Shown one piece after another: positions 9,459 through 64,000 of a DNA stretch of 64,000 bases (its first letter is position 1; each line of letters starts with the position of its first letter). Origin of the DNA: Planctomycetota bacterium (GTDB taxonomy: Bacteria; Planctomycetota; MHYJ01; JACQXL01). Made by a program: the position numbers and the translations under genes. The notes under the pieces are model-generated. The model did not search any database. It saw nothing but the letters and a program-made list of their open reading frames with translations, and was not told the origin of the DNA. The DNA is taken from positions 97,226 to 161,225 of the forward strand of contig JACRIK010000021.1 in NCBI GenBank assembly GCA_016235865.1. Reading direction: 5' to 3'.

Positions 9459-10304
9459 ATGAAAACCTTAATGCAATGTACTATTAAAAAGCCTGTTTTC
9501 TGTGAAGGCATCGGACTTTTTACCGGGCAGAAAGTGAAATTGTGTTTCCAGCCCGCTAAAGTTAATGATGGCATAACATTCATTGCCAATGGCGCCAGAA
9601 TTTCTGCTTCTATCAGTAACGTGCTGACCCAATACCGCCGCAATGCCATCGGGAAAGACGGCATCATTATCGAGACTATAGAACACCTAATGGCAGCTTT
9701 GAACGGATTAGGTATTACCAATATTGATATCGAGATTTATTCTGATAGTCAATCTGCAACCTATGAGATACCGAATACGGACGGCAGCGCTAAGTTATTT
9801 GTGGATTTATTATTAAAAGCCGGTATTGAGGAACAGCGCGCACCCAGGAGAGTCCTGCGAATAAATGCGCCGGTTAATTACAGGGATGGCGAGTGCTCTA
9901 TTATTGCCTTGCCAGCCGCTGACGATTCATTAACTGTTGACTATACCTTTTCGCATAGCGCCGTGATTATCGGCAATCAGCATTTATCAGTGGAACTGGT
10001 ACAGGATAACTTTATTTCGGAGATAGCCCCGGCCCGAACGTTTTGTATGGCCGACGAAGTGGCGTCTCTTCAGGCACAGGGAATAGGTAAGTCAGCCAAT
10101 TATCAGAATGTTCTGGTGGTGGATAATGACAAAATCGTCCAGAACACCTTGCGCTTTAAAGACGAATTCGTGCGCCATAAAATACTTGATTTAATCGGCG
10201 ATTTATACTTGTTAAATGCCTCGTTATTTGCTAAAATAGCAGCGGTTAAGACCGGCCATAGACAAAATGTAGAATTTGTCAGGAAATTGGTTGGATTACT
10301 CTAA
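9459..10304 (+). CDS. lpxC: UDP-3-O-acyl-N-acetylglucosamine deacetylase
   Basis: 281 aa; LpxC family; gene order lpxC-fabZ-lpxA. Confidence 0.85.
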   Translation: MKTLMQCTIKKPVFCEGIGLFTGQKVKLCFQPAKVNDGITFIANGARISASISNVLTQYRRNAIGKDGIIIETIEHLMAALNGLGITNIDIEIYSDSQSATYEIPNTDGSAKLFVDLLLKAGIEEQRAPRRVLRINAPVNYRDGECSIIALPAADDSLTVDYTFSHSAVIIGNQHLSVELVQDNFISEIAPARTFCMADEVASLQAQGIGKSANYQNVLVVDNDKIVQNTLRFKDEFVRHKILDLIGDLYLLNASLFAKIAAVKTGHRQNVEFVRKLVGLL

Positions 10305-13805: not shown

Positions 13806-13824
13806 GATATAATCCATAAATTCC

Positions 13825-13913
13825 TTGACCCCGCACATAAATAGTGTTAGAAAACCACACTACAAATAATAACTAAATTAGTACTGTATGTACTGCTTAT
13901 GTGCGGGGTTGAC
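13825..13913. repeat. TTGACCCCGCACATAA...TTATGTGCGGGGTTGAC inverted-repeat element upstream of efp
   Basis: 16/17-bp arms separated by 56 bp. Confidence 0.8.
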
Positions 13914-13976
13914 TAATTACCTTTTACATAAAATGAGCTTGTAATCTCTAACGGGATGAATGAGAAGATTTAACCT

Positions 13977-19103: not shown

Positions 19104-19943
19104 ATGAATAATGAACTTGTGCCGGTTACAAAAATAGCCGTTTTTCGCGGCCGGAAAATACGCAAAACCATCCACAAAAACGAATGGTGGTTTTCTATAG
19201 AAGATGTAGTTCGGGTCCTTACAGATTCATTACAACCAGCCGGATATATTAAGGATATGCGGCGCCGGGACCCGGAGATAGCCAAAGGGTGGGGGCAAAT
19301 TGCCACCCCCCTTTTGATTCAAACAGCCGGCGGTCCGCAAAAGGTGAATTGCGCTAATACCGAAGGCATGTTCCGTATTATCCAGTCCATTCCCTCGCCC
19401 AAAGCCGAGCCGTTCAAACGCTGGCTGGCTAAGGTGGGCTACGAGCGGGTCCGGGAGATAGAAGACCCGGAACTCGGCACCAAACGCACCCGGGCATTGT
19501 ATAAAGCCAAGGGCTACAGCGATGACTGGATAGAAAAACGGATGCGCGGCATTGCCATCCGCGAGGAACTGACCGACGAATGGAAAAAGCACGGAGTTGA
19601 AAGGGACAAGGAATACGAGATTCTGACCGCGGAAATCTCCCAAGCGACATTCGGGCTTACCCCGAGCCAGTATAAGAAACTCAAAAACCTGAAGCGTCAA
19701 AACCTGCGCGACCATATGACCGACCTGGAACTGATTTTCTCTATGTTAGGCGAGGCGTCAACCACCCAGATTACCAAGGTGGAACATCCGGACGGATTTG
19801 TGGAAAACAAGAAAGTGGCCCGGCGGGGCGGCAATGTGTCCGGAATAGCCCGCAAGAAACTGGAGCAGGAAACCGGCGGCCGGGTGGTCAGTCCGCAAAA
19901 CTATCTGGCAAATCAGCAGAATAAACGGCTAAAAGATAAGTAA
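19104..19943 (+). CDS. DinD-like DNA-damage-inducible protein with Bro-N-like N-terminal domain
   Basis: 279 aa; N-term 'KIRKTIHKNEWWFSIEDVVRVL' Bro-N-like; C-terminal region resembles E. coli DinD. Confidence 0.6.
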   Translation: MNNELVPVTKIAVFRGRKIRKTIHKNEWWFSIEDVVRVLTDSLQPAGYIKDMRRRDPEIAKGWGQIATPLLIQTAGGPQKVNCANTEGMFRIIQSIPSPKAEPFKRWLAKVGYERVREIEDPELGTKRTRALYKAKGYSDDWIEKRMRGIAIREELTDEWKKHGVERDKEYEILTAEISQATFGLTPSQYKKLKNLKRQNLRDHMTDLELIFSMLGEASTTQITKVEHPDGFVENKKVARRGGNVSGIARKKLEQETGGRVVSPQNYLANQQNKRLKDK

Positions 19944-22077: not shown

Positions 22078-22455
22078 GCGACCATAGAGTATCCCCTAAG
22101 CGGGGGCGGTCTATCCCCTAAGCGGGGATGGGCTATCCCCTAAGCGGGGAGGGGCTATCCCCTAAGCGGGGACGGGCTATCCTCTAAGCGGGGAGGGACT
22201 ACCCCCTAAGCGAGGGTGGACTATCCCCTAAGCTGGGAGGGGCTACCCCCTAAGCGGGGTGGGGCTACCCCCTAAGCGGGGATGGGCTATCCCCTAAGCG
22301 AGGTGGGGCTATCCCCTATGCGAGGTAGGGCTATCCCCTAAGCGAGGTGGGACTATTCCCTAAGCCGGGACGGGCTATCCCCTAAGCGGGGACGGACTAT
22401 CCCCTAAGCCGGGAGGGGCTACCCCCTAAGCGGGGATGGGCTATCCCCTATGCGA
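22078..22455. repeat. tandem array, ~17 copies of 22-bp unit CTATCCCCTAAGCGGGGATGGG
   Basis: head-to-tail copies with point variation, no spacers; stops in all frames. Confidence 0.9.
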
Positions 22456-22661
22456 GGATGGGGTATCACGGGTGCGGGGATGGGGGGAGGGGGGAGGGGG
22501 GATACCCCACCCCCCACCGTCTGAACCGGTTTTTGAGATAATAACTTTATGGATAAATGGTTACGCCAAAACCCGAGTGATTTTGGTAGCAGATTTCAGC
22601 CCGGATTACTTATTTAACGAGACATTAGACGACTTTTGGGGGTCGATATTGGCCTTTTGTT

Positions 22662-23636
22662 CTATGTCCCGCCAGAAGATAGGGCCAATGCGGCTGCGCC
22701 TAAGAGGCCGGCATCCTCGCCTAATTTGGCCGGGACAATCAGGGGCTTGCGATAGGGGTGTTTCATTATACTTGCCTTGACTACCTGACGCAGGGGTTTG
22801 AACAGAATCTCACCGGCCTGAGCCACTCCGCCGCCGATTACCACCATCTCCGGGTCAAAGATGTTAATCAGCGATGCGCAGGCCAGACCGAGATAATGGG
22901 CGGTGTCTTGAACAACTTCGCGGGCGAGTTTGTCGCCTTTTCTGGCTTTGTCAAATATTGTTTTAGCAGTAATGTCGTGCGTCTTGCGTCCTACGTCTTG
23001 CGTCCGGACGCCCAACGCATAACGCCCAACGCATAACGCATAGCGTTCTACAATGGCCGGTGCGCTGACCAGCGCTTCCAGATGCCCGGGTTTCCCGCAA
23101 CTGCAGTCCGGGCCATTGGGGTCTACGTTCATATGCCCGATTTCAGCGGCATAGAAATGCGAGCCGCGATATATCTGGTTGTCAATGATAATCCCGCCGC
23201 CTACGCCGGTGCCTAAGGTCAGGCAGATGAGATTCGTTGCTTTCTTCCCAGCGCCCCAGCATTTCTCACCCCAGCCGGCCAAATTGGCATCGTTGTCTAT
23301 GAAGACGGGTATTTTGAGCGCCTTCTCAAGCTCCTGTTTTACCTTCGTGCCTTTCCAGCCAATCAGATTGGGGGAGTCAGCCAGGATAATGCCTCTTTCA
23401 GCGTCAATAGAGCCGGGACAGGCGAGGCCGACACCGCGAACGGAATGACGAATGACGAATGACGAATGACGAATAACTTGATTGACTAATTGGGCAATGA
23501 GCCGGATGCCTTGTTTGCCATTGGGTGCTTTCGAGAAAGAGACCTTTTTCCTGGCCTTGATATGGCCGTTTTGGTCCACCAGCGCCGCGGTGATGTGGCT
23601 GCCGCCTAAATCGATACCAATAGCAAATTTGGTCAT
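22662..23636 (-). CDS. ROK family sugar kinase (glucokinase-like)
   Basis: 324 aa; 'KFAIGIDLGGSHITAALVD', CxCGxxGHLE zinc motif; contains in-frame repeat insertions. Confidence 0.8.
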   Translation of the reverse strand: MTKFAIGIDLGGSHITAALVDQNGHIKARKKVSFSKAPNGKQGIRLIAQLVNQVIRHSSFVIRHSVRGVGLACPGSIDAERGIILADSPNLIGWKGTKVKQELEKALKIPVFIDNDANLAGWGEKCWGAGKKATNLICLTLGTGVGGGIIIDNQIYRGSHFYAAEIGHMNVDPNGPDCSCGKPGHLEALVSAPAIVERYALCVGRYALGVRTQDVGRKTHDITAKTIFDKARKGDKLAREVVQDTAHYLGLACASLINIFDPEMVVIGGGVAQAGEILFKPLRQVVKASIMKHPYRKPLIVPAKLGEDAGLLGAAALALSSGGT

Positions 23637-23653
23637 AAGATGTATATAGTAAA

Positions 23654-23696
23654 ATCCCCCTTAATCCCCCTTTTGCAAAGGGGGAAGGGGGATTAG
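23654..23696 (-). terminator. nested poly-C/poly-G palindrome, candidate terminator for por operon
   Basis: atcccccttaatcccccttttgcaaagggggaagggggat, perfect nested inverted repeat directly downstream of porB. Confidence 0.4.
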
Positions 23697-23715
23697 AGCA
23701 AATAGTCCTATAACC

Positions 23716-24717
23716 TTAAGTGCCAACCGTCTCAAGGTCAGGTTTTTTGTCGCCCTGATTACACTTCTTGAGCAGTTTTTCCCATTCCTTATCCACATTG
23801 GCCTGGAGTTTGTTGATAAGCTCCTGGTTCGGTCCGCTCCGGTGGGTGCTCCCGGTCTCTGCGGAGTTCCCGCCCTTGGCGAAGATGTGCTTGAACCGGC
23901 CCTGGGGCTTGAGCCATTCGGTGATGGGTTTCTTTTCCTTGGGGATATAATTGAGTTTGTATTCCCCGTTTTCCACTTCATAAAGCGGCCAGTAGCAGGT
24001 ATCAGCCGCAATCCGGGCCAGGTTGATGGAGTCCTTCATCTCGTTTCGCCAGCCCCGGTGGCAGGGCGAGAGGATATTCAGGAAGCTCGGGCCGTCAGCG
24101 GCCAGTGCCTTTTTGACCTTGGTCATCAGGTCGCGCCAATGGGCCGGCGTGGTCTGGGCCAGGTAGGGGATATTATGGGCTGCCACGATGCCGGTCAGGT
24201 CCTTGCGGAAGACCGGTTTGCCGTAACTGGCCGAGCCGGCCGGGGTAGTGGTGGTGGAAGCGCCCATTGGGGTGGCGCCGGAGCGCTGGATGCCGGTATT
24301 CATATAGGCCTCGTTGTTGTAGCAGACATAGAGGAACTTGTGGCCGCGTTCCAATGCGCCGGAAAGCGCCTGCAAGCCGATATCAAAGGTCCCGCCGTCG
24401 CCGCCCACGGCGATGAATTTAATGGTCTTGGTAACCTTGCCCTGGCGTTTGAGCGACTGGTAAGCGGCCTCGATGCCGGAGATGGTCGCGGCCGAATTCT
24501 CGAAGGCGCTGTGAATCCAGTTGCATTTCCAGGCCGTATACGGATAGGTGGCGGTGGCCACATAGAGACAGCCGGTAGCCACGGACATAACCACCGGGTC
24601 TTCGGCGGCCATCAATATCTGGCGGAAGGTGGTTCCGGCGCCGCAACCGGCGCAAAGCCGGTGTCCGGAGACGAATGTTTCTTCCTTCTTGGATAATTCT
24701 TTTAAACTTAGTGCCAT
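23716..24717 (-). CDS. porB: pyruvate:ferredoxin oxidoreductase beta subunit (TPP-binding)
   Basis: 333 aa; 2-oxoacid:ferredoxin oxidoreductase beta family. Confidence 0.85.
   Translation of the reverse strand: MALSLKELSKKEETFVSGHRLCAGCGAGTTFRQILMAAEDPVVMSVATGCLYVATATYPYTAWKCNWIHSAFENSAATISGIEAAYQSLKRQGKVTKTIKFIAVGGDGGTFDIGLQALSGALERGHKFLYVCYNNEAYMNTGIQRSGATPMGASTTTTPAGSASYGKPVFRKDLTGIVAAHNIPYLAQTTPAHWRDLMTKVKKALAADGPSFLNILSPCHRGWRNEMKDSINLARIAADTCYWPLYEVENGEYKLNYIPKEKKPITEWLKPQGRFKHIFAKGGNSAETGSTHRSGPNQELINKLQANVDKEWEKLLKKCNQGDKKPDLETVGT
23828..23874. repeat. repeat family B module X inside porB 3' coding region
   Basis: ttcggtccgctccggtgggtgctcccggtctctgcggagttcccgcc. Confidence 0.85.
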
Positions 24718-24758
24718 AAAATTCCTTTCTTACTTAATTTTTGCGAAACGCCCCTTCC

Positions 24759-24827
24759 GTCATTCCCGTGTAAACGGGAATCCAGTAATCACATGGGGTC
24801 TGGATTCCTGCTTTCGCAGGAATGACA
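24759..24827. repeat. compound palindromic element (ATTCCC-N8-GGGAAT + ATTCCT-N8-AGGAAT) between porB and porA
   Basis: gtcattcccgtgtaaacgggaatccag...tggattcctgctttcgcaggaatgaca. Confidence 0.85.
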
Positions 24828-24838
24828 TAAAAGGGAAA

Positions 24839-26074
24839 TTATTCTCTTACCGTTAAATAGTCAAACACCTTATCAACCTTGCCGGCCTTGGCCACATCAA
24901 ACAATTTCTGGAATACCTTGTTGATGTCTTCCAGCCGGATATCGCGTCCGCCGATTCCATAGATGTAATTAATCATCAGGGGCTGTTTGGGCAGTCCGTA
25001 CATGGCAGACCTGACCTCGGTAAAGGTCGGGGTGCCGCCGGCGCCGAAGGCATCGACCCGGTCCATAACCGCGATGGCCTTGAGATGTTTCAGCGCGTTC
25101 TTGATTTCCTCTGCCGGGAACGGCCTGAAGATGCGGGGCTTGAGCAGCCCGACCTTGACGCCCTTGGCCCGGAGTTCATTGACCACCATCTTGGCCACGC
25201 CGGCCGCGGAATTGATGATGACCAGCGCGTATTCGGCGTCATCCAATTTGTAGGATTCGAACAGCCCGTATTTCCGGCCGGACATCTTGGCGAATTCCTC
25301 GGCCACCTCAAGTATCTTGGCCTTGCTGTTTATAATCGCCTCGGAATGCTGGCGTTTGTGTTCGGTATAATAATCCTGCAGGGCGCAGGCGCCGATAGTC
25401 ACCGGGTTATCCACATCCAGCAGTGAATTTATGGCTTTGAACTCGCCCACGAATTTCCTGACCGCCTCGTCATCGAGCAGGTCAACCCGTTCCACGGAAT
25501 GGGTGGTGATGAATCCGTCCATCGAGACCATGACCGGCAGGCGGATGTCCATATCTTCGCCGATGCGGACGGCCTGGATGAGGTTGTCATACATCTCCTG
25601 GGCGTTTTCGGAGTATATTTGGATCCAGCCGGAATCGCGTCCGCCCATGGTATCATCGTGCCCGCAGTGGATATTTAGCGGCGCGCTTAAGGAGCGGTTG
25701 GCTACATACATTATCACCGGTGTGCGCAGTCCGGCGGCGATGGGCAGCATCTCCCACATCAGGGCGAATCCGGCTGATGAGGTGGCGGTCATGGTCCGGG
25801 CGCCGGCGGCTGAAGAGCCGATACAGGCGCTCATGGAACTATGCTCGCTTTCCACCGGCACGTATTGGGTCTTGACCAGTCCGTTGGCCACGAACTCGGC
25901 GAATTCCTCCACGGCCTCGGTCTGGGGCGTAATCGGATAGGCGGCCACCACGTCCGGATTAATCTGGCGCATGGCCTCGGATACCGCGTTGTTTCCGGTC
26001 ATTGCAGCTATTCGGTTCGCTCCGGTAGGTGCTCCCGGTCTCTGCGGAGTTCTGGCGTTTTTGTTGTCTGTCAT
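24839..26074 (-). CDS. porA: pyruvate:ferredoxin oxidoreductase alpha subunit
   Basis: 411 aa; POR alpha family; repeat-derived N-terminal extension. Confidence 0.85.
   Translation of the reverse strand: MTDNKNARTPQRPGAPTGANRIAAMTGNNAVSEAMRQINPDVVAAYPITPQTEAVEEFAEFVANGLVKTQYVPVESEHSSMSACIGSSAAGARTMTATSSAGFALMWEMLPIAAGLRTPVIMYVANRSLSAPLNIHCGHDDTMGGRDSGWIQIYSENAQEMYDNLIQAVRIGEDMDIRLPVMVSMDGFITTHSVERVDLLDDEAVRKFVGEFKAINSLLDVDNPVTIGACALQDYYTEHKRQHSEAIINSKAKILEVAEEFAKMSGRKYGLFESYKLDDAEYALVIINSAAGVAKMVVNELRAKGVKVGLLKPRIFRPFPAEEIKNALKHLKAIAVMDRVDAFGAGGTPTFTEVRSAMYGLPKQPLMINYIYGIGGRDIRLEDINKVFQKLFDVAKAGKVDKVFDYLTVRE
26011..26057. repeat. repeat family B module X inside porA 5' coding region
   Basis: ttcggttcgctccggtaggtgctcccggtctctgcggagttctggcg (about 2 mismatches vs 23828-23874). 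Confidence 0.85.
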
Positions 26075-26134
26075 CTTAACGTCCCTTCTATAAGATACTT
26101 ACTTTTTTTACCGCGTCATTCCCGCCCCGTGTTT

Positions 26135-26227
26135 GTCATTCCCGCGAAAGCGGGAATCCACGGGATAAACTCCAGCGGGAATCTATACTTCTGGATTCCT
26201 GCCTACGCAGGAATGACAGAGAGTGAA
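26135..26227. repeat. compound palindromic element between porA and porD
   Basis: gtcattcccgcgaaagcgggaatcca...ctggattcctgcctacgcaggaatgaca. Confidence 0.85.
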
Positions 26228-26230
26228 TAG

Positions 26231-26524
26231 TTACTTCTTATCCTCCACCATCTGGATGGCCTTGACTTTATCCGGGCATTCCTCGGCGCAGATGCCGCAA
26301 CCCTTGCAGTATTTCAGGTCAAACTCGGCAATCTTGCCGTCCTTGACCTTGATGCAGCCATCCGGGCAGTAAATCCAGCAGAGCAGGCAGTTGGTGCATT
26401 TCTTGTTATCGTGCACCGGCTTGAGGTTGCGCCAGCCGCCGGTTTCATACTGCATACTACAGCCCGGGTCTTTGATAATTGAGCCGATAGGCATCTCGTG
26501 GCGATTCATTGTCTTCTTTGCCAT
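26231..26524 (-). CDS. porD: pyruvate:ferredoxin oxidoreductase delta subunit (2x[4Fe-4S] ferredoxin)
   Basis: 97 aa; two CxxCxxCxxxCP motifs. Confidence 0.85.
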   Translation of the reverse strand: MAKKTMNRHEMPIGSIIKDPGCSMQYETGGWRNLKPVHDNKKCTNCLLCWIYCPDGCIKVKDGKIAEFDLKYCKGCGICAEECPDKVKAIQMVEDKK

Positions 26525-26607
26525 ATTATTAATCTCCTTTTTAGAGCCAGTTAGGAACAGAGTGACTTACTGGGTCTTATCCCGGCAGTTTTTGCCGGGA
26601 CACCTCA

Positions 26608-27177
26608 TTATTCCTTTACTTCTGCGAAACCCTTTTTAATAGAGTTCAGGTTGCCCTCGACCACCTTGGCGGCGAATTTCTCGCCGAATGAATGTTTGAT
26701 ATCAGCCAGCAGACCGTCCAGCGAAACCACGTTGGTGGTCTTGACGATAGCGCCCATTATCGGCGTATTGGGCATGGTCCGGCCCAGTTCTGCGATGGAG
26801 ATGCCGGTGGCGTCCACGGTATAGATTTTATTGCCGTCCATCTTAAGTTTAGCGCGAAGTTCGGCCGGTGTCTTGGTGGTATTGACGATGATAATTCCGC
26901 CTTTATTAAGGCCTTCGGCCACGTTGACCGTATCCAGCAGCGAATCATCCAGCACCACCACCACATCCGGGTTGACCACGGAGCAGTAGAGCGAGAAATT
27001 ATCCTGGCTGACCCGGTTATAGGCGCGCATCGGAGCGCCCATCCGTTCCGGCCCGAACTCCGGCATGCCCTGGGCGTATTTGCCTTCGGTAATGGCGATT
27101 CTGGCCAGGGTCCGGGCGGCTAACATCGCTCCTTGCCCGCCCCGGGCGTGCCATCTGATTTCTGTTATTTTAGACAT
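26608..27177 (-). CDS. porG: pyruvate:ferredoxin oxidoreductase gamma subunit
   Basis: 189 aa; POR gamma family; gene order porG-D-A-B. Confidence 0.85.
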   Translation of the reverse strand: MSKITEIRWHARGGQGAMLAARTLARIAITEGKYAQGMPEFGPERMGAPMRAYNRVSQDNFSLYCSVVNPDVVVVLDDSLLDTVNVAEGLNKGGIIIVNTTKTPAELRAKLKMDGNKIYTVDATGISIAELGRTMPNTPIMGAIVKTTNVVSLDGLLADIKHSFGEKFAAKVVEGNLNSIKKGFAEVKE

Positions 27178-27207
27178 GTTTAGCGCTCCATTCTATTTCG
27201 TCTAAAT

Positions 27208-27237
27208 GTCATTGCGAGTATAGTCCCTCGCAATGAC
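27208..27237. repeat. related hairpin (gtcattgcgag..ctcgcaatgac) between porG and accD
   Basis: gtcattgcgagtatagtccctcgcaatgac. Confidence 0.6.
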
Positions 27238-27262
27238 AGAAAGAGGGTCTTTCAATAATCTC

Positions 27263-28102
27263 CTACACCAAATATTCTAACATCTTGGCCAGTTCTGCCT
27301 TCATATTCTTGCGGTCGATGACCCGGTCCACCAAACCGTGCTGGAGCATAAATTCCGAGGTTTGGAAACCCTCGGGCAGTTCCTTGCCGATGGTTTGGGC
27401 AATGACTCTCGGACCGGTGAATCCGATAAGCGCCCTGGGTTCGGCCAGGATGATATCGCCCAATCCGGCGAAACTGGCCATCACGCCGGCCATGGTCGGA
27501 TTGGTTAATATTGAGATATAAGCCACGCCGGCATCGTGCAAACGGGCCAGGGCAGCCGAGGTCTTGGCCATCTGCATCAGGGAGATGCAACCCTCATACA
27601 TCCGGGCGCCGCCGCCGGAGCCGGATACGAATATAAACGGAATCTTGAGTTCCATGGACTTTTCCGCGGCCCGGGCGAATTTCTCGCCTACCACCGAGCC
27701 CATCGAACCCATAATAAAACGGGAATCGGTCACGCCGAACATCACGTCTATGCCGTTGATTTTACCCTTGCCGACTATAACCGCGTCATTCATGCCCGTG
27801 GCCTTCTGGTCTTCGGCAACCTTATCCTTATAGGTGGACAGGGCCTTAAAACCGAGCGGGTCTTTGGAAACCATATCAGTCCAGTATTCCTCAAAGCTTC
27901 CCTTATCCATGGTTAGGGCGACGCGTTCCCGGGCGGTGATGGAGAAATGGTAATGGCATTCCGGGCAGACATTGAGCAGTTCCTTGACCTCGTTCTTGCG
28001 GACCAGGTTCTTGCAACCATCGCACTTGGTCCACTGGCCGTCCGGCATCTCCTTCTGGCGCTGGAGCACGAACTTCTTAAGGTTTCCCCATCCTTCAGAC
28101 AT
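27263..28102 (-). CDS. accD: acetyl-CoA carboxylase carboxyltransferase beta subunit
   Basis: 279 aa; N-terminal CxxC...CxxC zinc finger, AccD family. Confidence 0.85.
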   Translation of the reverse strand: MSEGWGNLKKFVLQRQKEMPDGQWTKCDGCKNLVRKNEVKELLNVCPECHYHFSITARERVALTMDKGSFEEYWTDMVSKDPLGFKALSTYKDKVAEDQKATGMNDAVIVGKGKINGIDVMFGVTDSRFIMGSMGSVVGEKFARAAEKSMELKIPFIFVSGSGGGARMYEGCISLMQMAKTSAALARLHDAGVAYISILTNPTMAGVMASFAGLGDIILAEPRALIGFTGPRVIAQTIGKELPEGFQTSEFMLQHGLVDRVIDRKNMKAELAKMLEYLV

Positions 28103-28191
28103 AGTTAGTGTTCTCCTTTATTGGTAAATTAATTTATGTAGTGTATCAAACACCAATGACCGGGTCAAGAGAAATCCTGATAAATAATTAC

Positions 28192-28220
28192 TTGACCCTG
28201 GCAGGACGGGCTGATATATA
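28192..28220 (+). promoter_or_regulatory. sigma70-like promoter TTGACC-N17-TATATA upstream of rimO
   Basis: TTGACC 28192-28197, 17-nt spacer, TATATA 28215-28220, ATG at 28231. Confidence 0.45.
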
Positions 28221-28230
28221 AAGGGCTAAT

Positions 28231-29616
28231 ATGCCAAAAAAGCCAAATGTTAGATTTGTCAGTTTGGGATGTCCCAAGAATCTGGTGGATTCTGAGGTGA
28301 TGTTAGGCCATTTGACCGGCGCCGGTTATCGGATATGTCCGGACAACCAGTTAAATCAGGCCCAAAGCGACCTGTTTATGGTCAATACCTGTTGTTTTAT
28401 CAACGAGGCCGAGCAGGAGTCGCGGGATATCATTGGACAGGCCATAGATATCAGGGATAAATTCCGCAAAGCGCATCCGGGCCGGAGCGGTTATAAGATA
28501 GTGGTCAGCGGATGCCTGGCCCAGCGGTATGCCGACCGTTTGAATAATGATTTTAAAGGACAGATTGACGGCATTATCGGGATATCCGAACGGGATAAGG
28601 TTATTGACCTATGCGATGGTTTGGTGAATAATGGGCATAGTAAAAATACCGTGTACCGGGCTAAGCCCAATACCGGATGCCGGACCGATGGTCAACGTCT
28701 GAGAATCACGCCGGCGCATTATGCCTATCTGCGGATAGCCGAGGGGTGCGACAACCGATGCAGTTATTGCGTGATTCCGGCGTTGCACGGCGCGTATCGC
28801 AGTAAGCCACTGGATAAGGTGATAGCCGAGGCATCATCATTGGTAGCAGGCGGGGCCATGGAGATTAATCTGATTGCCCAGGACATTTCTTCTTACGGCA
28901 AGGACATCGGCAGTTCCCTGCCAAAGTTGCTTGAGAAACTGTCCGGCATCAAAGGCCTAAAATGGATTCGGCTGTTATATACCCATCCGGCCCATTTTAC
29001 GGATGAATTGATATATGCCATACGCGATATTGACAAGGTGGTCAAATATGTGGATCTGCCGATTCAGCATATCAGCGACCGGATGCTGGCCTCAATGGGT
29101 CGGCACACAACCTCAGCCCGGGTCAGGCGCCTGATAGACAAAATCAGGCAGGAGATACCGGGCGTATTCATCAGGACCTCGGTGATTGTCGGGTTTCCGG
29201 GCGAGACCGCCCAGGATTTCCGGGAACTGATGAACTTTATCAAGGATACGGAATTTGAACGGCTGGGGGCATTTGAATATTCTCGGGAAAAGGATACCTT
29301 GGCCTATAAGATGGCGCATCAGGTTCCGGCTAAGATTAAAAAGCAGCGGCTGGACAAGGTGATGTTATTACAGCAGGGCATTGCCTTCAGGCAGAATCAG
29401 GCGCTCAAGGGTAAATTAATGGATGCTATTATTGATAAGTCCGGTAAGAACGGGTTTTATTTAGGGCGGATTTATGGAGACGCGCCTGACGTGGATGGTA
29501 ATATTATTATCAAGCCAAAAACTAAACTTTCAGCCGGGGATATTGTAAATATTAAAGTCACCGGCAGTAAAGGTTATGATCTTAAAGGAGAATTAGCAGA
29601 TGAACATACCAAATAA
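28231..29616 (+). CDS. rimO: ribosomal protein S12 methylthiotransferase RimO (MiaB-family radical SAM + TRAM)
   Basis: 461 aa; MTTase N-domain cysteines, radical SAM CDNRCSYC, C-terminal TRAM. Confidence 0.75.
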   Translation: MPKKPNVRFVSLGCPKNLVDSEVMLGHLTGAGYRICPDNQLNQAQSDLFMVNTCCFINEAEQESRDIIGQAIDIRDKFRKAHPGRSGYKIVVSGCLAQRYADRLNNDFKGQIDGIIGISERDKVIDLCDGLVNNGHSKNTVYRAKPNTGCRTDGQRLRITPAHYAYLRIAEGCDNRCSYCVIPALHGAYRSKPLDKVIAEASSLVAGGAMEINLIAQDISSYGKDIGSSLPKLLEKLSGIKGLKWIRLLYTHPAHFTDELIYAIRDIDKVVKYVDLPIQHISDRMLASMGRHTTSARVRRLIDKIRQEIPGVFIRTSVIVGFPGETAQDFRELMNFIKDTEFERLGAFEYSREKDTLAYKMAHQVPAKIKKQRLDKVMLLQQGIAFRQNQALKGKLMDAIIDKSGKNGFYLGRIYGDAPDVDGNIIIKPKTKLSAGDIVNIKVTGSKGYDLKGELADEHTK

Positions 29617-39163: not shown

Positions 39164-39198
39164 ATATAAAACGTTATTCTGTCATTCCAGTCCCGCTT

Positions 39199-39330
39199 GT
39201 CATTCCCGTGAAAACGGGAATCCAGAGGGATAAACTCCGGCGGGAAGCCAGTCCCTCTGACGGGATGGTGGGAACCGTAAGCCCAAAGATGTCTGGATTC
39301 TGTGTCAAGCACGGAATGCCAGTTTAATAG
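39199..39330. repeat. compound palindromic element (partly degenerate) between ftsB-like and ruvB
   Basis: gtcattcccgtgaaaacgggaatccagagggataaactccggcgggaagcc...tggattctgtgtcaagcacggaatgcc. Confidence 0.7.
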
Positions 39331-41563: not shown

Positions 41564-41619
41564 AACCGGTAATCAATATCAAATATCCTGGATGTAGTCA
41601 ACAAAATGCAACCACAGAT

Positions 41620-41697
41620 TTCGCGGATGACACAGATTAAAAATAATCAGTGAAATCTGTGAACACCGCAGTGACCGCGACAGCGAAATCTGTGGTT
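41620..41697. repeat. AACCACAGAT...ATCTGTGGTT terminal-inverted-repeat element
   Basis: 10-bp perfect TIRs, internal cacagatt/aatctgtg sub-repeats. Confidence 0.8.
41663..41693. repeat. repeat family B module Y (reverse orientation), intergenic, nested in AACCACAGAT element
   Basis: RC = ttcgctgtcgcggtcactgcggtgttcac. Confidence 0.8.
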
Positions 41698-45595: not shown

Positions 45596-46168
45596 ATGAA
45601 TATCCAGACCCCGTTAACTGATGGGATAGTGGAGAATCTGCATATCGGCGACAAGGTGTTACTTTCCGGGGTAATCTACACAGCCCGGGACGCGGCCCAT
45701 AAGCGTATCTTTGACGAGATTCAATTAGCCCGCACCGAGAAACGCGCACCCAAACTGCCTTTTGACCTTAATGGCGCTGTAATCTATTATGTCGGTCCCA
45801 CCCCAGCCAAGCCGGGTCAGGTTATCGGCTCGGCCGGTCCGACCACGGCTTACCGGATGGACCCCTACACGCCCGCGTTGCTGGAACTGGGCCTGAAGGC
45901 CAGTATTGCCAAGGGCGAACGTTCTCCAGCTGTGTTAGAGGCGATGAAGAAATATAAGGCGGTTTATTTCGTGGCGGTCGGTGGCGCCGGGGCGCTCCTG
46001 AGCCAGCGGATTGTCAAGGCCGAGGTGATTGCCTATGACGACCTCGGGGCTGAGGCGGTTCGGAGACTGGAAGTGAAGGATTTTCCGGTCACCGTGGCCA
46101 ATGATATGCACGGCGGCGATTTATACAAGGTCGGGGTAAAGCAATACGCAAGGACAAGTCCCCCTTAA
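45596..46168 (+). CDS. Fe-S hydro-lyase beta subunit (class I fumarate hydratase/tartrate dehydratase beta-type)
   Basis: 190 aa; FumB-C/TtdB family resemblance; no adjacent alpha subunit. Confidence 0.7.
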   Translation: MNIQTPLTDGIVENLHIGDKVLLSGVIYTARDAAHKRIFDEIQLARTEKRAPKLPFDLNGAVIYYVGPTPAKPGQVIGSAGPTTAYRMDPYTPALLELGLKASIAKGERSPAVLEAMKKYKAVYFVAVGGAGALLSQRIVKAEVIAYDDLGAEAVRRLEVKDFPVTVANDMHGGDLYKVGVKQYARTSPP

Positions 46169-46228
46169 CAAAGGGGGATTAAGGGGGTTATAACCCCCTC
46201 GCCCCCTTTAATAAGGGGGAATGGGGAC
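46159..46228 (+). terminator. cluster of three poly-C/poly-G hairpins overlapping stop codon
   Basis: cccccttaacaaaggggg, gggggttataaccccc, ccccctttaataaggggg. Confidence 0.4.
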
Positions 46229-58768: not shown

Positions 58769-58850
58769 GCGCGGGTGGTGGAACTGGCAGACACGTAGGT
58801 TTTAGGAGCCTATGCCTCACGGCTTGCGGGTTCAACTCCCGCCCCGCGCA
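58769..58850 (+). tRNA. tRNA-Leu (anticodon TAG)
   Basis: acceptor gcgcggg/cccgcgc, anticodon stem taggt/gccta with loop ttTAGga, long variable arm, T-loop ttcaact; no encoded CCA. Confidence 0.7.
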
Positions 58851-58886
58851 TTAGAATCTGTTAAGCCGAAGGCTGTTACAGATTCT

Positions 58887-58942
58887 TATCCCGCACATAA
58901 CCAGATTCTGCGCATCAGCAAAGCAGTAGATTATGTGCGGGA
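58887..58942. repeat. ATCCCGCACATAA...TTATGTGCGGGAT inverted-repeat element between tRNA-Leu and clpB
   Basis: 13-bp perfect arms, 30-bp spacer. Confidence 0.8.
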
Positions 58943-58977
58943 TTAGAACGGGGAGAACAAAGAGGATAAATAGAACT

Positions 58978-62813: not shown

Positions 62814-62858
62814 ACCACAGATAAACACAGATTAACACTGATTTTATCTAATCTGTGC
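62814..62858. repeat. AACCACAGAT-family palindromic element
   Basis: aaccacagataaacacagattaacactgattttatctaatctgtgc. Confidence 0.7.
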
Positions 62859-62920
62859 TACTCCATTGCCATAGTAATAATTCATATCTGGTATCGACCA
62901 GGAGTTTTTCTCTCCATTAT

Positions 62921-63019
62921 CGTCATTTCCGTGTAAACGGGAATCCAGTATTAGGTTTTTGGATTCTTCCTGAGTTTAATACGTAAATGCCTGGACTCCT
63001 GCCTTCGCAGGCGTGACAA
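62921..63019. repeat. compound palindromic element between GAF-HD-GYP gene and valS
   Basis: gtcatttccgtgtaaacgggaatccag...ctggactcctgccttcgcaggcgtgaca. Confidence 0.75.
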
Positions 63020-63079
63020 ACACGTGGTTGGAATGGTATGGGGAATAAGCTTGATAGATTATGGTGATTTGCGGCTAAT

Positions 63080-63123
63080 AACCACAGATTTAATTATCTG
63101 TGTATATCTGTGTAATCTGTGGT
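63080..63123. repeat. AACCACAGAT-family palindromic element abutting valS stop
   Basis: aaccacagatttaattatctgtgtatatctgtgtaatctgtggtt (3 direct ATCTGTG + inverted CACAGAT). Confidence 0.8.
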
Positions 63124-64000
63124 TTATAGTTCTCTTAGCGATTCCTTCAGATTTGCTTCCTGTTTGGCCAGTTCTTCCTGCCTGAGCAATTCTTTTTGGA
63201 GAATGGCCTGGGGCGCCCGTGATTTGAAATTCTCGTCGGATAATTTATTGGTCACTAAAGCCAGTTGTTCCTTGATTTTGATCAGGCGCTGTTCCAGCCG
63301 TTTTTTCTCCGCCTCCGGGTCAATAATTCCCTCCAACGGTATGAAAAGCTGCAAAGCATTGACGATTTCGGTGGCCGAGTGTTTGGGTTTGGCCAGTTTT
63401 ACGCCCATCTCTATCTTACCCAGATTAGCCTGATGCTTAATCAGTTCTTCATGCGGCCGAATGCCGTCCAGCGCTTTGCTCACTTCAGCCGAGATAATCA
63501 GGTCTAACGCCTGCTTGCGCTCGATTGTCATCTTATTGCGGATATTCCGGACACTCCGGATGATGCCGATATTTATTTCCATTGTCTGCTCAATCTGCTC
63601 GTCTATCTGCTTGGGCTCGGCCGACGGCCAGGTTGCACTCATCACTGATTCGCTCTGGAAATGTTCCGGATATTGCTCCTTAAACTTCTGCCAGAGTTCC
63701 TCGGTGATAAACGGGATGAAGGGATGGAGCATGCGCAGGGTATTGCTGAAGAGATAAAAAAGCGTAGAGCGTGTAGCGTTGAGCGTAGAGGCGTCTTGGC
63801 TGTATAATCTTGGCTTGATGATTTCCAGATACCAGTCGCACAAATCGCTCCAGAAGAAGTGGTAAATCAAGTGGGCCGCCTCGCTGAATTGGTAGGTCTC
63901 TAAGGCCTTGGTATAATCGCGGATGGTGGTGTTCAGGCGGGAGAGAATCCAGCGGTCTTCGAATGTGTCGTGCGTTGTGGGTTGTGTGTCTTGGGTTTTT
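63124..64000 (-). CDS. valS: valine--tRNA ligase, C-terminal part (gene continues beyond window end)
   Basis: 'DRWILSRLN...SEAAHLIYHFFWSDLCDWYLEIIKP' and C-terminal coiled coil; frame stays open to 64000. Confidence 0.8.
   Translation of the reverse strand, partial: KTQDTQPTTHDTFEDRWILSRLNTTIRDYTKALETYQFSEAAHLIYHFFWSDLCDWYLEIIKPRLYSQDASTLNATRSTLFYLFSNTLRMLHPFIPFITEELWQKFKEQYPEHFQSESVMSATWPSAEPKQIDEQIEQTMEINIGIIRSVRNIRNKMTIERKQALDLIISAEVSKALDGIRPHEELIKHQANLGKIEMGVKLAKPKHSATEIVNALQLFIPLEGIIDPEAEKKRLEQRLIKIKEQLALVTNKLSDENFKSRAPQAILQKELLRQEELAKQEANLKESLREL

Follow-up and report, generated by a model that had tools for sequence, protein, structure and literature searches.

The spacers of one operon in this stretch of DNA are occupied by palindromes, and the question that they raise is whether these belong to the operon or have come into it from elsewhere. 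The operon, accD-porGDAB (minus strand, 23716..28102, gene identities by Pfam), lies in a 64,000-nt stretch of contig JACRIK010000021.1 of a Planctomycetota bacterium, which is called the window hereafter and to which all coordinates refer unless another locus is named. Judged by their sequence, the por palindromes are copies of a known, widespread family of hairpin repeats, the dRS3/NTS repeats of Neisseria and the CGTC-1 class of REP sequences, in a planctomycete host; the repeat family is already known and it is the host that is new. The explanation that we favour, with a probability of about 70%, is that they are repeats related to the GIY-YIG nuclease Ssn, and that those which occur as dimers are gene-less miniature derivatives of NTS-ssn-NTS units, recently inserted in this planctomycete lineage.

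The 28-nt NTS, CGTCATTCCCGCGMAVGCGGGAATCYRG, which includes dRS3, shows a spatial link across bacteria to a small GIY-YIG gene, ssnA (CDD cd10448), and the NTS-ssnA-NTS layout has been likened to an insertion sequence (Chenal et al. 2025, Nat Commun, PMC11893778). Single-stranded DNA is the only substrate of SsnA, which binds the hairpin and makes its cut just upstream, and does not act on double-stranded DNA, on RNA or on the reverse strand; cutting depends on the three bases that precede the palindrome, and binding on the C that follows (PMC11893778). CGTC-1 REPs have an unpaired tag, CGTC or TGTC, ahead of an 8-bp stem that begins with AT, a 4-nt loop and a CCA tail of about 3 nt, and are found mostly as 'HH' dimers (bodies towards each other, tags on the outside) with spacers of 20-100 bp, in intergenic DNA near the 3' end of the upstream open reading frame (ORF); the Neisseria members of this class are the dRS3 repeats (Di Nocera, De Gregorio & Rocco 2013, BMC Genomics, PMC3733652).

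Five sites of the form ATTCCY-N8-RGGAAT were found in the window, where 0.09 were expected; three are exact matches to the dRS3 20-mer ATTCCC-N8-GGGAAT and two read ATTCCT/AGGAAT. The census of copies, which covers this 64-kb window, gave five elements (E1 to E5), four of which are dimers with their tags facing outward. E1 (24758..24827), in the porA/porB gap, is an inverted dimer reading CGTCATTCCCGTGTAAACGGGAATCCAG-14 nt-CTGGATTCCTGCTTTCGCAGGAATGACA; its left arm (24758-24785, plus strand) is CGTC-ATTCCCGT-GTAA-ACGGGAAT-CCAG and its right arm, on the other side of the 14-nt spacer (24800-24827, minus strand), is TGTC-ATTCCTGC-GAAA-GCAGGAAT-CCAG, each arm being 3 mismatches from the NTS. E2 (26114..26218), in the porD/porA gap, is a nested composite dimer, in which a long variant of the left arm (26114-26185, plus strand; CGTC-ATTCCCGC-[CCCGTG ... 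CACGGG]-ATAAACTCCA-GCGGGAAT-CTA) carries a short NTS copy inside its inner loop (26134-26161, plus strand) and is followed by a right arm at 26191-26218 (minus strand; TGTC-ATTCCTGC-GTAG-GCAGGAAT-CCAG); the part that reads TGTCATTCCCGCGAAAGCGGGAATCCAC ... CTGGATTCCTGCCTACGCAGGAATGACA spans 26134-26218.

Two more dimers lie outside the operon, both in gaps between convergent genes. E5 (62921..63018), between an HD-domain gene and valS, joins a left arm at 62921-62948 (plus strand; CGTC-ATTTCCGT-GTAA-ACGGGAAT-CCAG) to a diverged right arm at 62991-63018 (minus strand; TGTC-ACGCCTGC-GAAG-GCAGGAGT-CCAG). E3 (39180..39322), between a DivIC-family gene and ruvB, is a decayed composite dimer with a long-variant left arm (39180-39251), a short NTS nested in it (39198-39225, plus strand) and a right arm (39293-39322, minus strand) of a degenerate ATTCCGTG-loop-CACAGAAT type with a damaged tag (GCC); E2 and E3 thus have in common both the nested architecture and a module, GGGATAAACTCC. 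The spacers between the arms are about 41 nt in E3 and about 42 nt in E5; in E2 the right arm lies 5 nt beyond the tail of the long arm, or about 30 nt beyond the short arm nested in it. As a side observation, E5 is flanked by two intergenic clusters of AACCACAGAT(T)/ATCTGTG repeats (62815-62860 and 63075-63129), and another such cluster is found at 41610-41697.

The layout of the well-preserved arms is uniform: a Y-GTC tag, an 8-bp stem starting with AT (ATTCCCGC, ATTCCCGT or ATTCCTGC), a 4-nt loop, the complementary stem and CCAG. Six window arms are within 2-4 mismatches of the NTS, and four match the published SRM pattern (HGTCWYN(0-2)YYVSBRHN(0-5)WNVSBRGN(0-2)RNCYNB) against 0.31 expected from shuffled sequence. 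E1 and E5 have the upstream GTC together with the trailing C in each of their arms, E2 has them in all three and E3 in its long arm and the one nested there, so that the positions critical for cutting and binding by SsnA are kept in nearly all arms, the exception being the right arm of E3 with its GCC tag. All short arms of E1, E2, E3 and E5 fit the CGTC-1 arm definition, and the dimers fit the CGTC-1 dimer description apart from the spacers of E1 and E2, which are below the quoted 20-100 bp. The preliminary description of this DNA, made from the sequence, had compared the cores of the por palindromes with dRS3 in what was clearly not a Neisseria; the likeness proves to extend beyond the core to the GTC tag and the CCAG tail, while the best PorA matches are from metagenome-assembled genomes (MAGs) of Planctomycetota, with up to 90% identity. 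The same description had named absence of the elements from the rest of the genome as grounds for refutation, and E3 and E5 are copies outside the operon.

When folded as single-stranded DNA every arm makes its own hairpin. E1 takes up a cloverleaf (-18.8 to -20.2 kcal/mol), and the minimum free energy structure of E2 (-31.4 kcal/mol, z -6.1) consists of an outer stem, an inner stem and the nested hairpin, with the hairpin of the right arm standing apart. The 27-nt arms are also complementary to each other over 81% (E1) and 85% (E2) of their length, and hence the whole unit does form a larger palindrome, as had been proposed. Within E1 and E2, though, each arm's own stem is perfect and the two arms differ by compensated changes (CGT/ACG versus TGC/GCA); perfect stems within the arms beside 81-85% pairing between them suggest that the constraint is on the individual hairpins more than on a long inter-arm stem.

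The third element of the operon is of another kind. E4 (27207..27238), in the accD/porG gap, is a single perfect palindrome, TGTC-ATTGCGAG-N8-CTCGCAAT-GACA, with a tag on both strands; its core, TGTCATTGCGAG-N8-CTCGCAATGACA, is that of a sibling GTCATTGCGAG family and not of an ATTCCC dimer, it does not match the published SRM pattern, and as single-stranded DNA it folds at -13.1 kcal/mol (z -10). Hairpins of the GTCATTGCGAG type form a separate family that co-occurs widely with the present one and has the layout YGTC-ATTGCGAG-inner hairpin-GCAAT-C. For comparisons of this sort, loci amounting to about 2.9 Mb around several hundred repeat copies were fetched by means of the repeat patterns, and 31 of 364 fetched loci held 47 GTCATTGCGAG sites, where we estimate that about 1.3 would be expected (11-mer, 2.8 Mb, both strands).

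The genes of the operon are accD (27263-28102), porG (26608-27177), porD (26231-26524), porA (24839-26074) and porB (23716-24717), all on the minus strand, and a ROK-family gene (22662-23636, by Pfam) is the 3' neighbour of porB across a gap at 23637-23715. E1, E2 and E4 start 12-24 nt past stop codons, and each downstream gene has kept its own Shine-Dalgarno sequence after the inserted element. Compound palindromes had been described in every gap of the operon; those in the porA/porB and porD/porA gaps are present as described (E2 starting somewhat earlier, at 26114), while the accD/porG gap has the single palindrome with another core, and the porG/porD and porB/ROK gaps have unrelated hairpins. 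The hairpin of the porG/porD gap (26525..26607, minus strand) is CCCGGCA-N5-TGCCGGG with a second stem, lacks a GTCATT tag and is not a member of the family. It is followed by CCAGTAAGTCAC...CCTAACTGG and a Shine-Dalgarno sequence, and a clearly similar stretch stands upstream of porA, in a different gap, in a related contig (L365, 1-159), so a conserved leader is one possibility for this unit and a further small mobile element another.

Comparison with related operons was informative about the age of the elements. Seven related por contigs were available, among them L242 (the closest relative, PorA 90%), L365, L366, L367 and L368; the accD-por gene order of the window is found in relatives, some of whose por genes overlap or nearly abut. 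The gaps accD/porG, porG/porD, porD/porA and porA/porB measure 85, 83, 156 and 121 nt in the window, compared to 15, 1, 70 and 10 nt in L242, 27, 19, 1 and 13 nt in L366 and 22, 1, 1 and 13 nt in L368. At the por sites occupied in the window, no element was found in any of the seven contigs (0/7), where the porD/porA gap is 1-70 nt. Copies of the family do occur elsewhere in these relatives: L242 has one element in the porB-ROK gap and a dimer 2 kb beyond it, and L367 has a lone reversed NTS copy in the porG-porD gap. Sites that are empty in seven relatives, with gaps often of only 1-27 nt, together with copies of the family elsewhere in the same relatives, point to lineage-specific insertions and not to conserved parts of the operon. 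On these spacings the ancestral por spacers appear to have been very short, with the elements inserted later in this lineage. Most PorA homologues have 393 aa, whereas the longest porA ORF of the window, with 411 aa, has about 18 aa more at its N-terminus, so the true start of porA may be later and the porD/porA gap then wider than 156 nt.

The family is far from restricted to these bacteria. The pattern GTCATTCCYG-N6-CRGGAATCCAG was found in at least 120 stretches of viral contigs and in at least 120 of species-representative genomes. By record title the matches listed come from at least about 15 phylum-level groups, although odd single records may reflect contamination of MAGs: Chloroflexota, Nitrospirota, Bacteroidota, Planctomycetota, Desulfobacterota, several lineages of the candidate phyla radiation, Gemmatimonadota and Cloacimonadota are among them, as are alpha-, beta- and gammaproteobacteria (including Neisseria lactamica and N. 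dentiae) and one Nanoarchaeota MAG. The fetched loci contain 431 ATTCC-N10-GGAAT sites, with the YGTC tag in 93% and the CCAG tail in 83%, percentages which are upper bounds as the set was partly chosen by the search pattern. The three inner stem pairs are intact in 418 of these 431 sites, through compensatory stem types such as CGC/GCG, TGC/GCA, CAC/GTG and CGT/ACG. Dimers in the fetched loci have their tags outward in 58 cases and inward in 18, and have both arms in the same orientation in 28. The idea that dimers sit within older palindromes was considered and left unused: flank complementarity was 4.65 of 12 positions against 3.98 +/- 0.20 in permutations, a few loci with larger repeats drive the difference, and E1 and E2 score 4/12.

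The long variant seen in E2 and E3 recurs as well. A module common to the two, GGGATAAACTCCRGCGGGAA, has at least 120 matches in metagenome contigs (loci L246-L364), and in 81 of the 108 usable matches listed it is part of a unit of about 51 nt, YGTC-ATTCCCGY-[CCCGnn-loop-nnCGGG]-ATAAACTCCR-GCGGGAAT-CCAG, which adds an inner hairpin and a 10-nt bulge, ATAAACTCCR, to the outer stem of the short arm. The bulge belonged to the search pattern and its conservation is therefore not an independent result; likewise the pattern fixed the 3' half of the variant, which confounds the strand bias of G-T versus A-C mispairs. Positions 4-6 of the inner stem are about 90% paired, and at position 5 all four Watson-Crick pairs occur in similar numbers (C-G 21, T-A 14, A-T 11, G-C 10), so compensatory change preserves the inner stem. 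Of 125 long-variant copies, five (E2 and E3 of the window, L273, L343 and L360) have a short motif in the loop of the inner hairpin, and its type differs between loci. This nesting is most simply read as repeated insertion at the same structural position; since the loci differ in their nested units and also in their inner stems, spread from one composite ancestor is less likely. The four CGTC families of Di Nocera et al. do not include the long nested variant, nor was it found described in the literature examined, the supplementary tables of the Ssn paper aside.

An all-versus-all BLASTP of the ORFs of the first 244 loci gave phage structural and housekeeping families, and no enzyme recurred among the genome loci; the 90-aa ORF cut-off concealed ssn genes of about 95 aa in that comparison, and these were recovered by regular-expression searches and tblastn. 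In all, tblastn across the fetched loci identified 11 Ssn-like genes (93-97 aa), the product of each having GIY-YIG (PF01541) as its one domain. In eight of these 11 cases the repeat stands on both sides with its tags outward, in forward orientation 34-65 nt upstream of the gene and in reverse 9-28 nt downstream of it. Without the gene this layout is that of the window dimers, which therefore look like NTS-ssn-NTS cassettes that have lost it. The long variant also flanks ssn genes (L266, L348 and L370).

One Ssn-like protein used as query had thousands of relatives, the best 120 of which (69-100% identity) include proteins from Candidatus Brocadiaceae and Candidatus Scalindua (both Planctomycetota), Omnitrophota and a Rickettsiales symbiont. 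In the Scalindua MAG (L370) the gene, at 10001-10291, lies between hsdR/Fic and hsdM/hsdS in a type I restriction-modification locus, and in the Brocadiaceae MAG (L371, a shorter contig) it lies at 420-710, just upstream of hsdM/hsdS. Both genes, at 75-76% identity to the query, have short and long variants of the motif on their flanks, which indicates that the NTS/Ssn system exists in Planctomycetota. Their position within planctomycete type I restriction-modification loci hints at a defence-linked role.

Set against the systems already described, the window elements resemble the NTS/SRM-SsnA system (PMC11893778) in their 28-nt unit with a GTC tag, an 8-bp stem of ATTCCCGC type, a 4-nt loop and a tail led by C, and in being a multi-copy, almost exclusively intergenic family of many phyla that brackets small GIY-YIG genes with its tags outward. 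They differ from it in their host, a Planctomycetota MAG without ssn within 64 kb, in the ATTCCTGC stems of half of the window arms, which fall outside the SRM pattern, and in the 51-nt variant with its inner hairpin, ATAAACTCCR bulge and other nested motif, used by two window copies (E2 and E3). With the CGTC-1 REPs (PMC3733652) they share the tag, stem, loop and tail described above, the predominance of 'HH' dimers, often heterodimers, and the position close behind the stop codon of the upstream ORF, whereas the 2013 survey recorded CGTC repeats in five phyla that did not include Planctomycetota, named no enzyme and had no long nested variant in its four families. The core ATTCCC-N8-GGGAAT is that of Neisseria dRS3/NIME sequences, and the exact 27-mer pattern is common to the N. 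lactamica and N. dentiae records; unlike those, the present dimers are isolated in a Planctomycetota-like chromosome of an unrelated organism instead of being built into large mosaic NIME arrays with RS elements, and some of their arms read ATTCCT/AGGAAT. The likeness to REPIN-RAYT systems (Bertels & Rainey 2011, 2023) is one of outline: inverted doublets that look like gene-less derivatives of a hairpin-flanked single-copy gene and whose positions vary between relatives. In the present case the associated gene encodes a GIY-YIG nuclease where a REPIN system would have an HUH tyrosine transposase, YGTC stands in place of the GTAG tag, and the near identity of repeat and enzyme across phyla suggests horizontal spread and not strictly vertical inheritance.

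A mechanism consistent with these results can be proposed. The window dimers would be NTS-ssn-NTS cassettes that have lost their gene, a relation like that of REPINs to RAYT genes. The window copies would have entered intergenic spacers recently, three of them inside accD-porGDAB, with one type entering the loop of an older long-variant copy as well. Wherever the DNA becomes single-stranded, during replication, repair or uptake, each arm would fold into its own hairpin; an Ssn protein, assumed to be encoded elsewhere in the genome, could then bind the hairpin and nick just upstream of it and its tag, on the strand that carries the forward arm, and copies might spread through this cleavage and subsequent host repair or recombination. 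Transcription of por would probably read through the hairpins, so that changes in mRNA decay or in translational coupling, if there are any, would be incidental. A bolder proposal is that the tags-outward dimers are active non-autonomous mobile elements driven by the GIY-YIG enzyme Ssn, making up an 'Ssn-REPIN' system distinct from HUH (RAYT) transposition. Such mobility is suggested by the recurrence of different short motifs in the inner loop of the long variant, as if insertion into hairpin loops of single-stranded DNA were preferred, and the near identity of the repeat, and of Ssn genes that are 70-80% identical, over some 15 or more phylum-level groups suggests frequent horizontal transfer; we put the proposal forward tentatively and think it rather less probable than its opposite.

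Several points weigh against the reading of the elements as gene-less Ssn-related insertions. Regular-expression and tblastn searches detected no ssn gene in the 64-kb window, and the Ssn-like genes of the fetched loci bear that name by Pfam PF01541 and tblastn similarity, not by cd10448 or by alignment with N. meningitidis SsnA. The ATTCCTGC-type right arms, half of the arms, are not matched by the SRM pattern, and E4 departs from the other elements in its core and in its GAC tail. A clean pair of empty and filled sites was not recovered, as the flanking spacers have diverged and leave insertion boundaries and target duplication undefined, and none of the loci obtained through the patterns is from a close relative of the window organism. 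How NTS repeats spread is not known even in Neisseria (PMC11893778). Finally, a single operon, with its five gaps, holds three of the five window copies (hypergeometric p of about 0.003 by our own post hoc estimate), and this clustering could mean local selection instead of neutral insertion. It recalls the grouping of NTS copies around certain Neisseria genes, an analogy on which we do not rely.

That clustering is one of the points in favour of a function in RNA, by which the elements would be selected parts of the por transcript, acting as REP-like barriers to 3' exonucleases or as RNase processing sites that set the stability of individual cistrons. REPs of E. coli are known to stabilise upstream mRNA. 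The hairpins on the transcribed strand of por are very stable (-42.4 kcal/mol for E1, z -6.0, and -54.3 kcal/mol for E2, z about -6), they come within 12-24 nt of stop codons, and in the absence of a U-tract after them read-through is expected, so from the folds they would be stable hairpins in a polycistronic por mRNA, on which an effect is possible. The same gaps are, however, empty in the seven related contigs, several of which have gaps of 1-27 nt that would suit translational coupling; the same elements lie between convergent genes elsewhere in the window; the perfect 8-bp stem in each arm, compared to the imperfect pairing between arms, speaks for single hairpins as the constrained unit; and SsnA, the one partner of this motif that has been demonstrated by experiment, does not bind RNA (PMC11893778). 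A search of the whole window against Rfam at gathering thresholds gave only a tRNA and no family at the elements. We therefore regard selected RNA elements as unlikely, and of the preliminary suggestion of REP-like mRNA stabilisers or processing sites it is the REP-like character, on the CGTC-1 definition, that holds, the stabilising or processing role being unsupported. Simple intrinsic terminators, with accD and the por genes transcribed separately, have even less to commend them than this, for beyond the presence of G+C-containing hairpins in intergenic gaps nothing fits: the flanks in the direction of transcription read ...AATGACGGAAGGGG, ...AATGACAAACACGG and ...AATGACATTTAGAC without a U-run, a scan of 22400-28400 gave no terminator-like site at the elements and a single promoter-like site, upstream of accD (28168-28140, operon strand), and the por genes of relatives overlap or nearly abut. 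Termination, which the preliminary description had named as an outcome that would count against its view, is thus extremely improbable.

Mobility by other means has also to be considered. The repeats could be REPINs, that is, non-autonomous doublets copied by an IS200/IS605-like HUH tyrosine transposase (RAYT), as proposed for the Neisseria 21-mer ATTCCCGCGCAGGCGGGAATC, which Bertels & Rainey tie to the Group 2 RAYT NMAA_0235; this assignment also tells against a link with Ssn. The doublets do have REPIN geometry, two inverted REPs less than 130 bp apart that can fold into one long hairpin, and the insertion polymorphism of the elements is in keeping with this view. Their tag, on the other hand, is YGTC, whereas RAYTs cleave GTAG, Di Nocera et al. 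report no dedicated transposase with CGTC repeats on its flanks (PMC3733652), and neither a transposase or RAYT nor a Y1_Tnp domain was detected among 40 window ORFs scanned with Pfam. As a partner enzyme in the fetched loci RAYT was rejected: tblastn with E. coli RayT gave nothing below E = 0.7 in their roughly 2.9 Mb, and the lone Y1_Tnp ORF obtained by regular-expression search (L332) has no GTCATT tag within 500 nt, in contrast to the 11 Ssn-like genes, most of them bracketed. RAYT mobilisation is about as improbable to us as the RNA role. A further view, that the repeats are attachment or target sites for mobile DNA, as dRS3 is for Neisseria filamentous prophages with an IS110-family recombinase, draws on the documentation of dRS3 as a phage recombinase target (cited in PMC11893778) and on a cluster of IS110-transposase-like proteins (judged from the look of the sequence, without a profile) in 7 viral contigs that carry the 27-mer. 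There is no integrated element, recombinase or transposase beside any of the five window copies, and a target role would leave the origin and the pairing of the repeats unexplained; we give it very little credence, on a par with termination.

With Ssn-related repeats as the preferred identity, some practical points follow. The por palindromes should be labelled in annotation as Ssn-related (NTS/CGTC-REP) repeats, not as operon regulators or terminators. The repeat family, the enzyme partner of which was identified only in 2025, occurs in Planctomycetota and can invade tightly coupled operons of central metabolism, and to what was known of it are added dimers that share the geometry of the ssn brackets and a 51-nt structured variant that takes nested insertions at one fixed spot. 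These data bear on how the repeats spread and on what Ssn does outside Neisseria, without settling either. If the tags-outward dimers were indeed moved by Ssn, the copies around porA would mark DNA that is cut on entry or when single-stranded, as around Neisseria genes for surface proteins. The repeats also explain breaks in short-read assemblies around porA: the only other public contig with an identical PorA, Logan contig SRR12113407_1259469 (L001, 1349 nt), has both ends inside the flanking repeats, as fits a short-read assembly broken by a multi-copy repeat.

Other repeats were noted in the neighbourhood of the operon. Inside the ROK gene, a palindrome with 31-nt arms (22978-23033) corresponds to an 11-aa in-frame insertion relative to the ROK protein of L242 and may be an intragenic insert of another repeat type. 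The same gene has four tandem GAATGAC heptamers at 23442-23480, (GTCATTC)x4 on the coding strand, which encode VIRHSSFVIRHS; the ROK protein of the relative is similar at the heptamers, suggesting that they are coding sequence and not a hairpin element. Another palindromic family, based on TCCCCCTTAA/AAGGGGGA, is present in the porB/ROK gap (23645-23712) and at 46159-46220, with a similar copy in the porB/ROK gap of L367 (4731-4796). Intergenic inverted repeats based on CCCGCACATAA / TTATGTGCGGG were found at 13819-13918 and 58883-58948, the second adjoining a tRNA (58769-58850), and an ORF with a BRO-N domain, which is often phage-associated, lies at 19104-19943 amid an otherwise housekeeping region.

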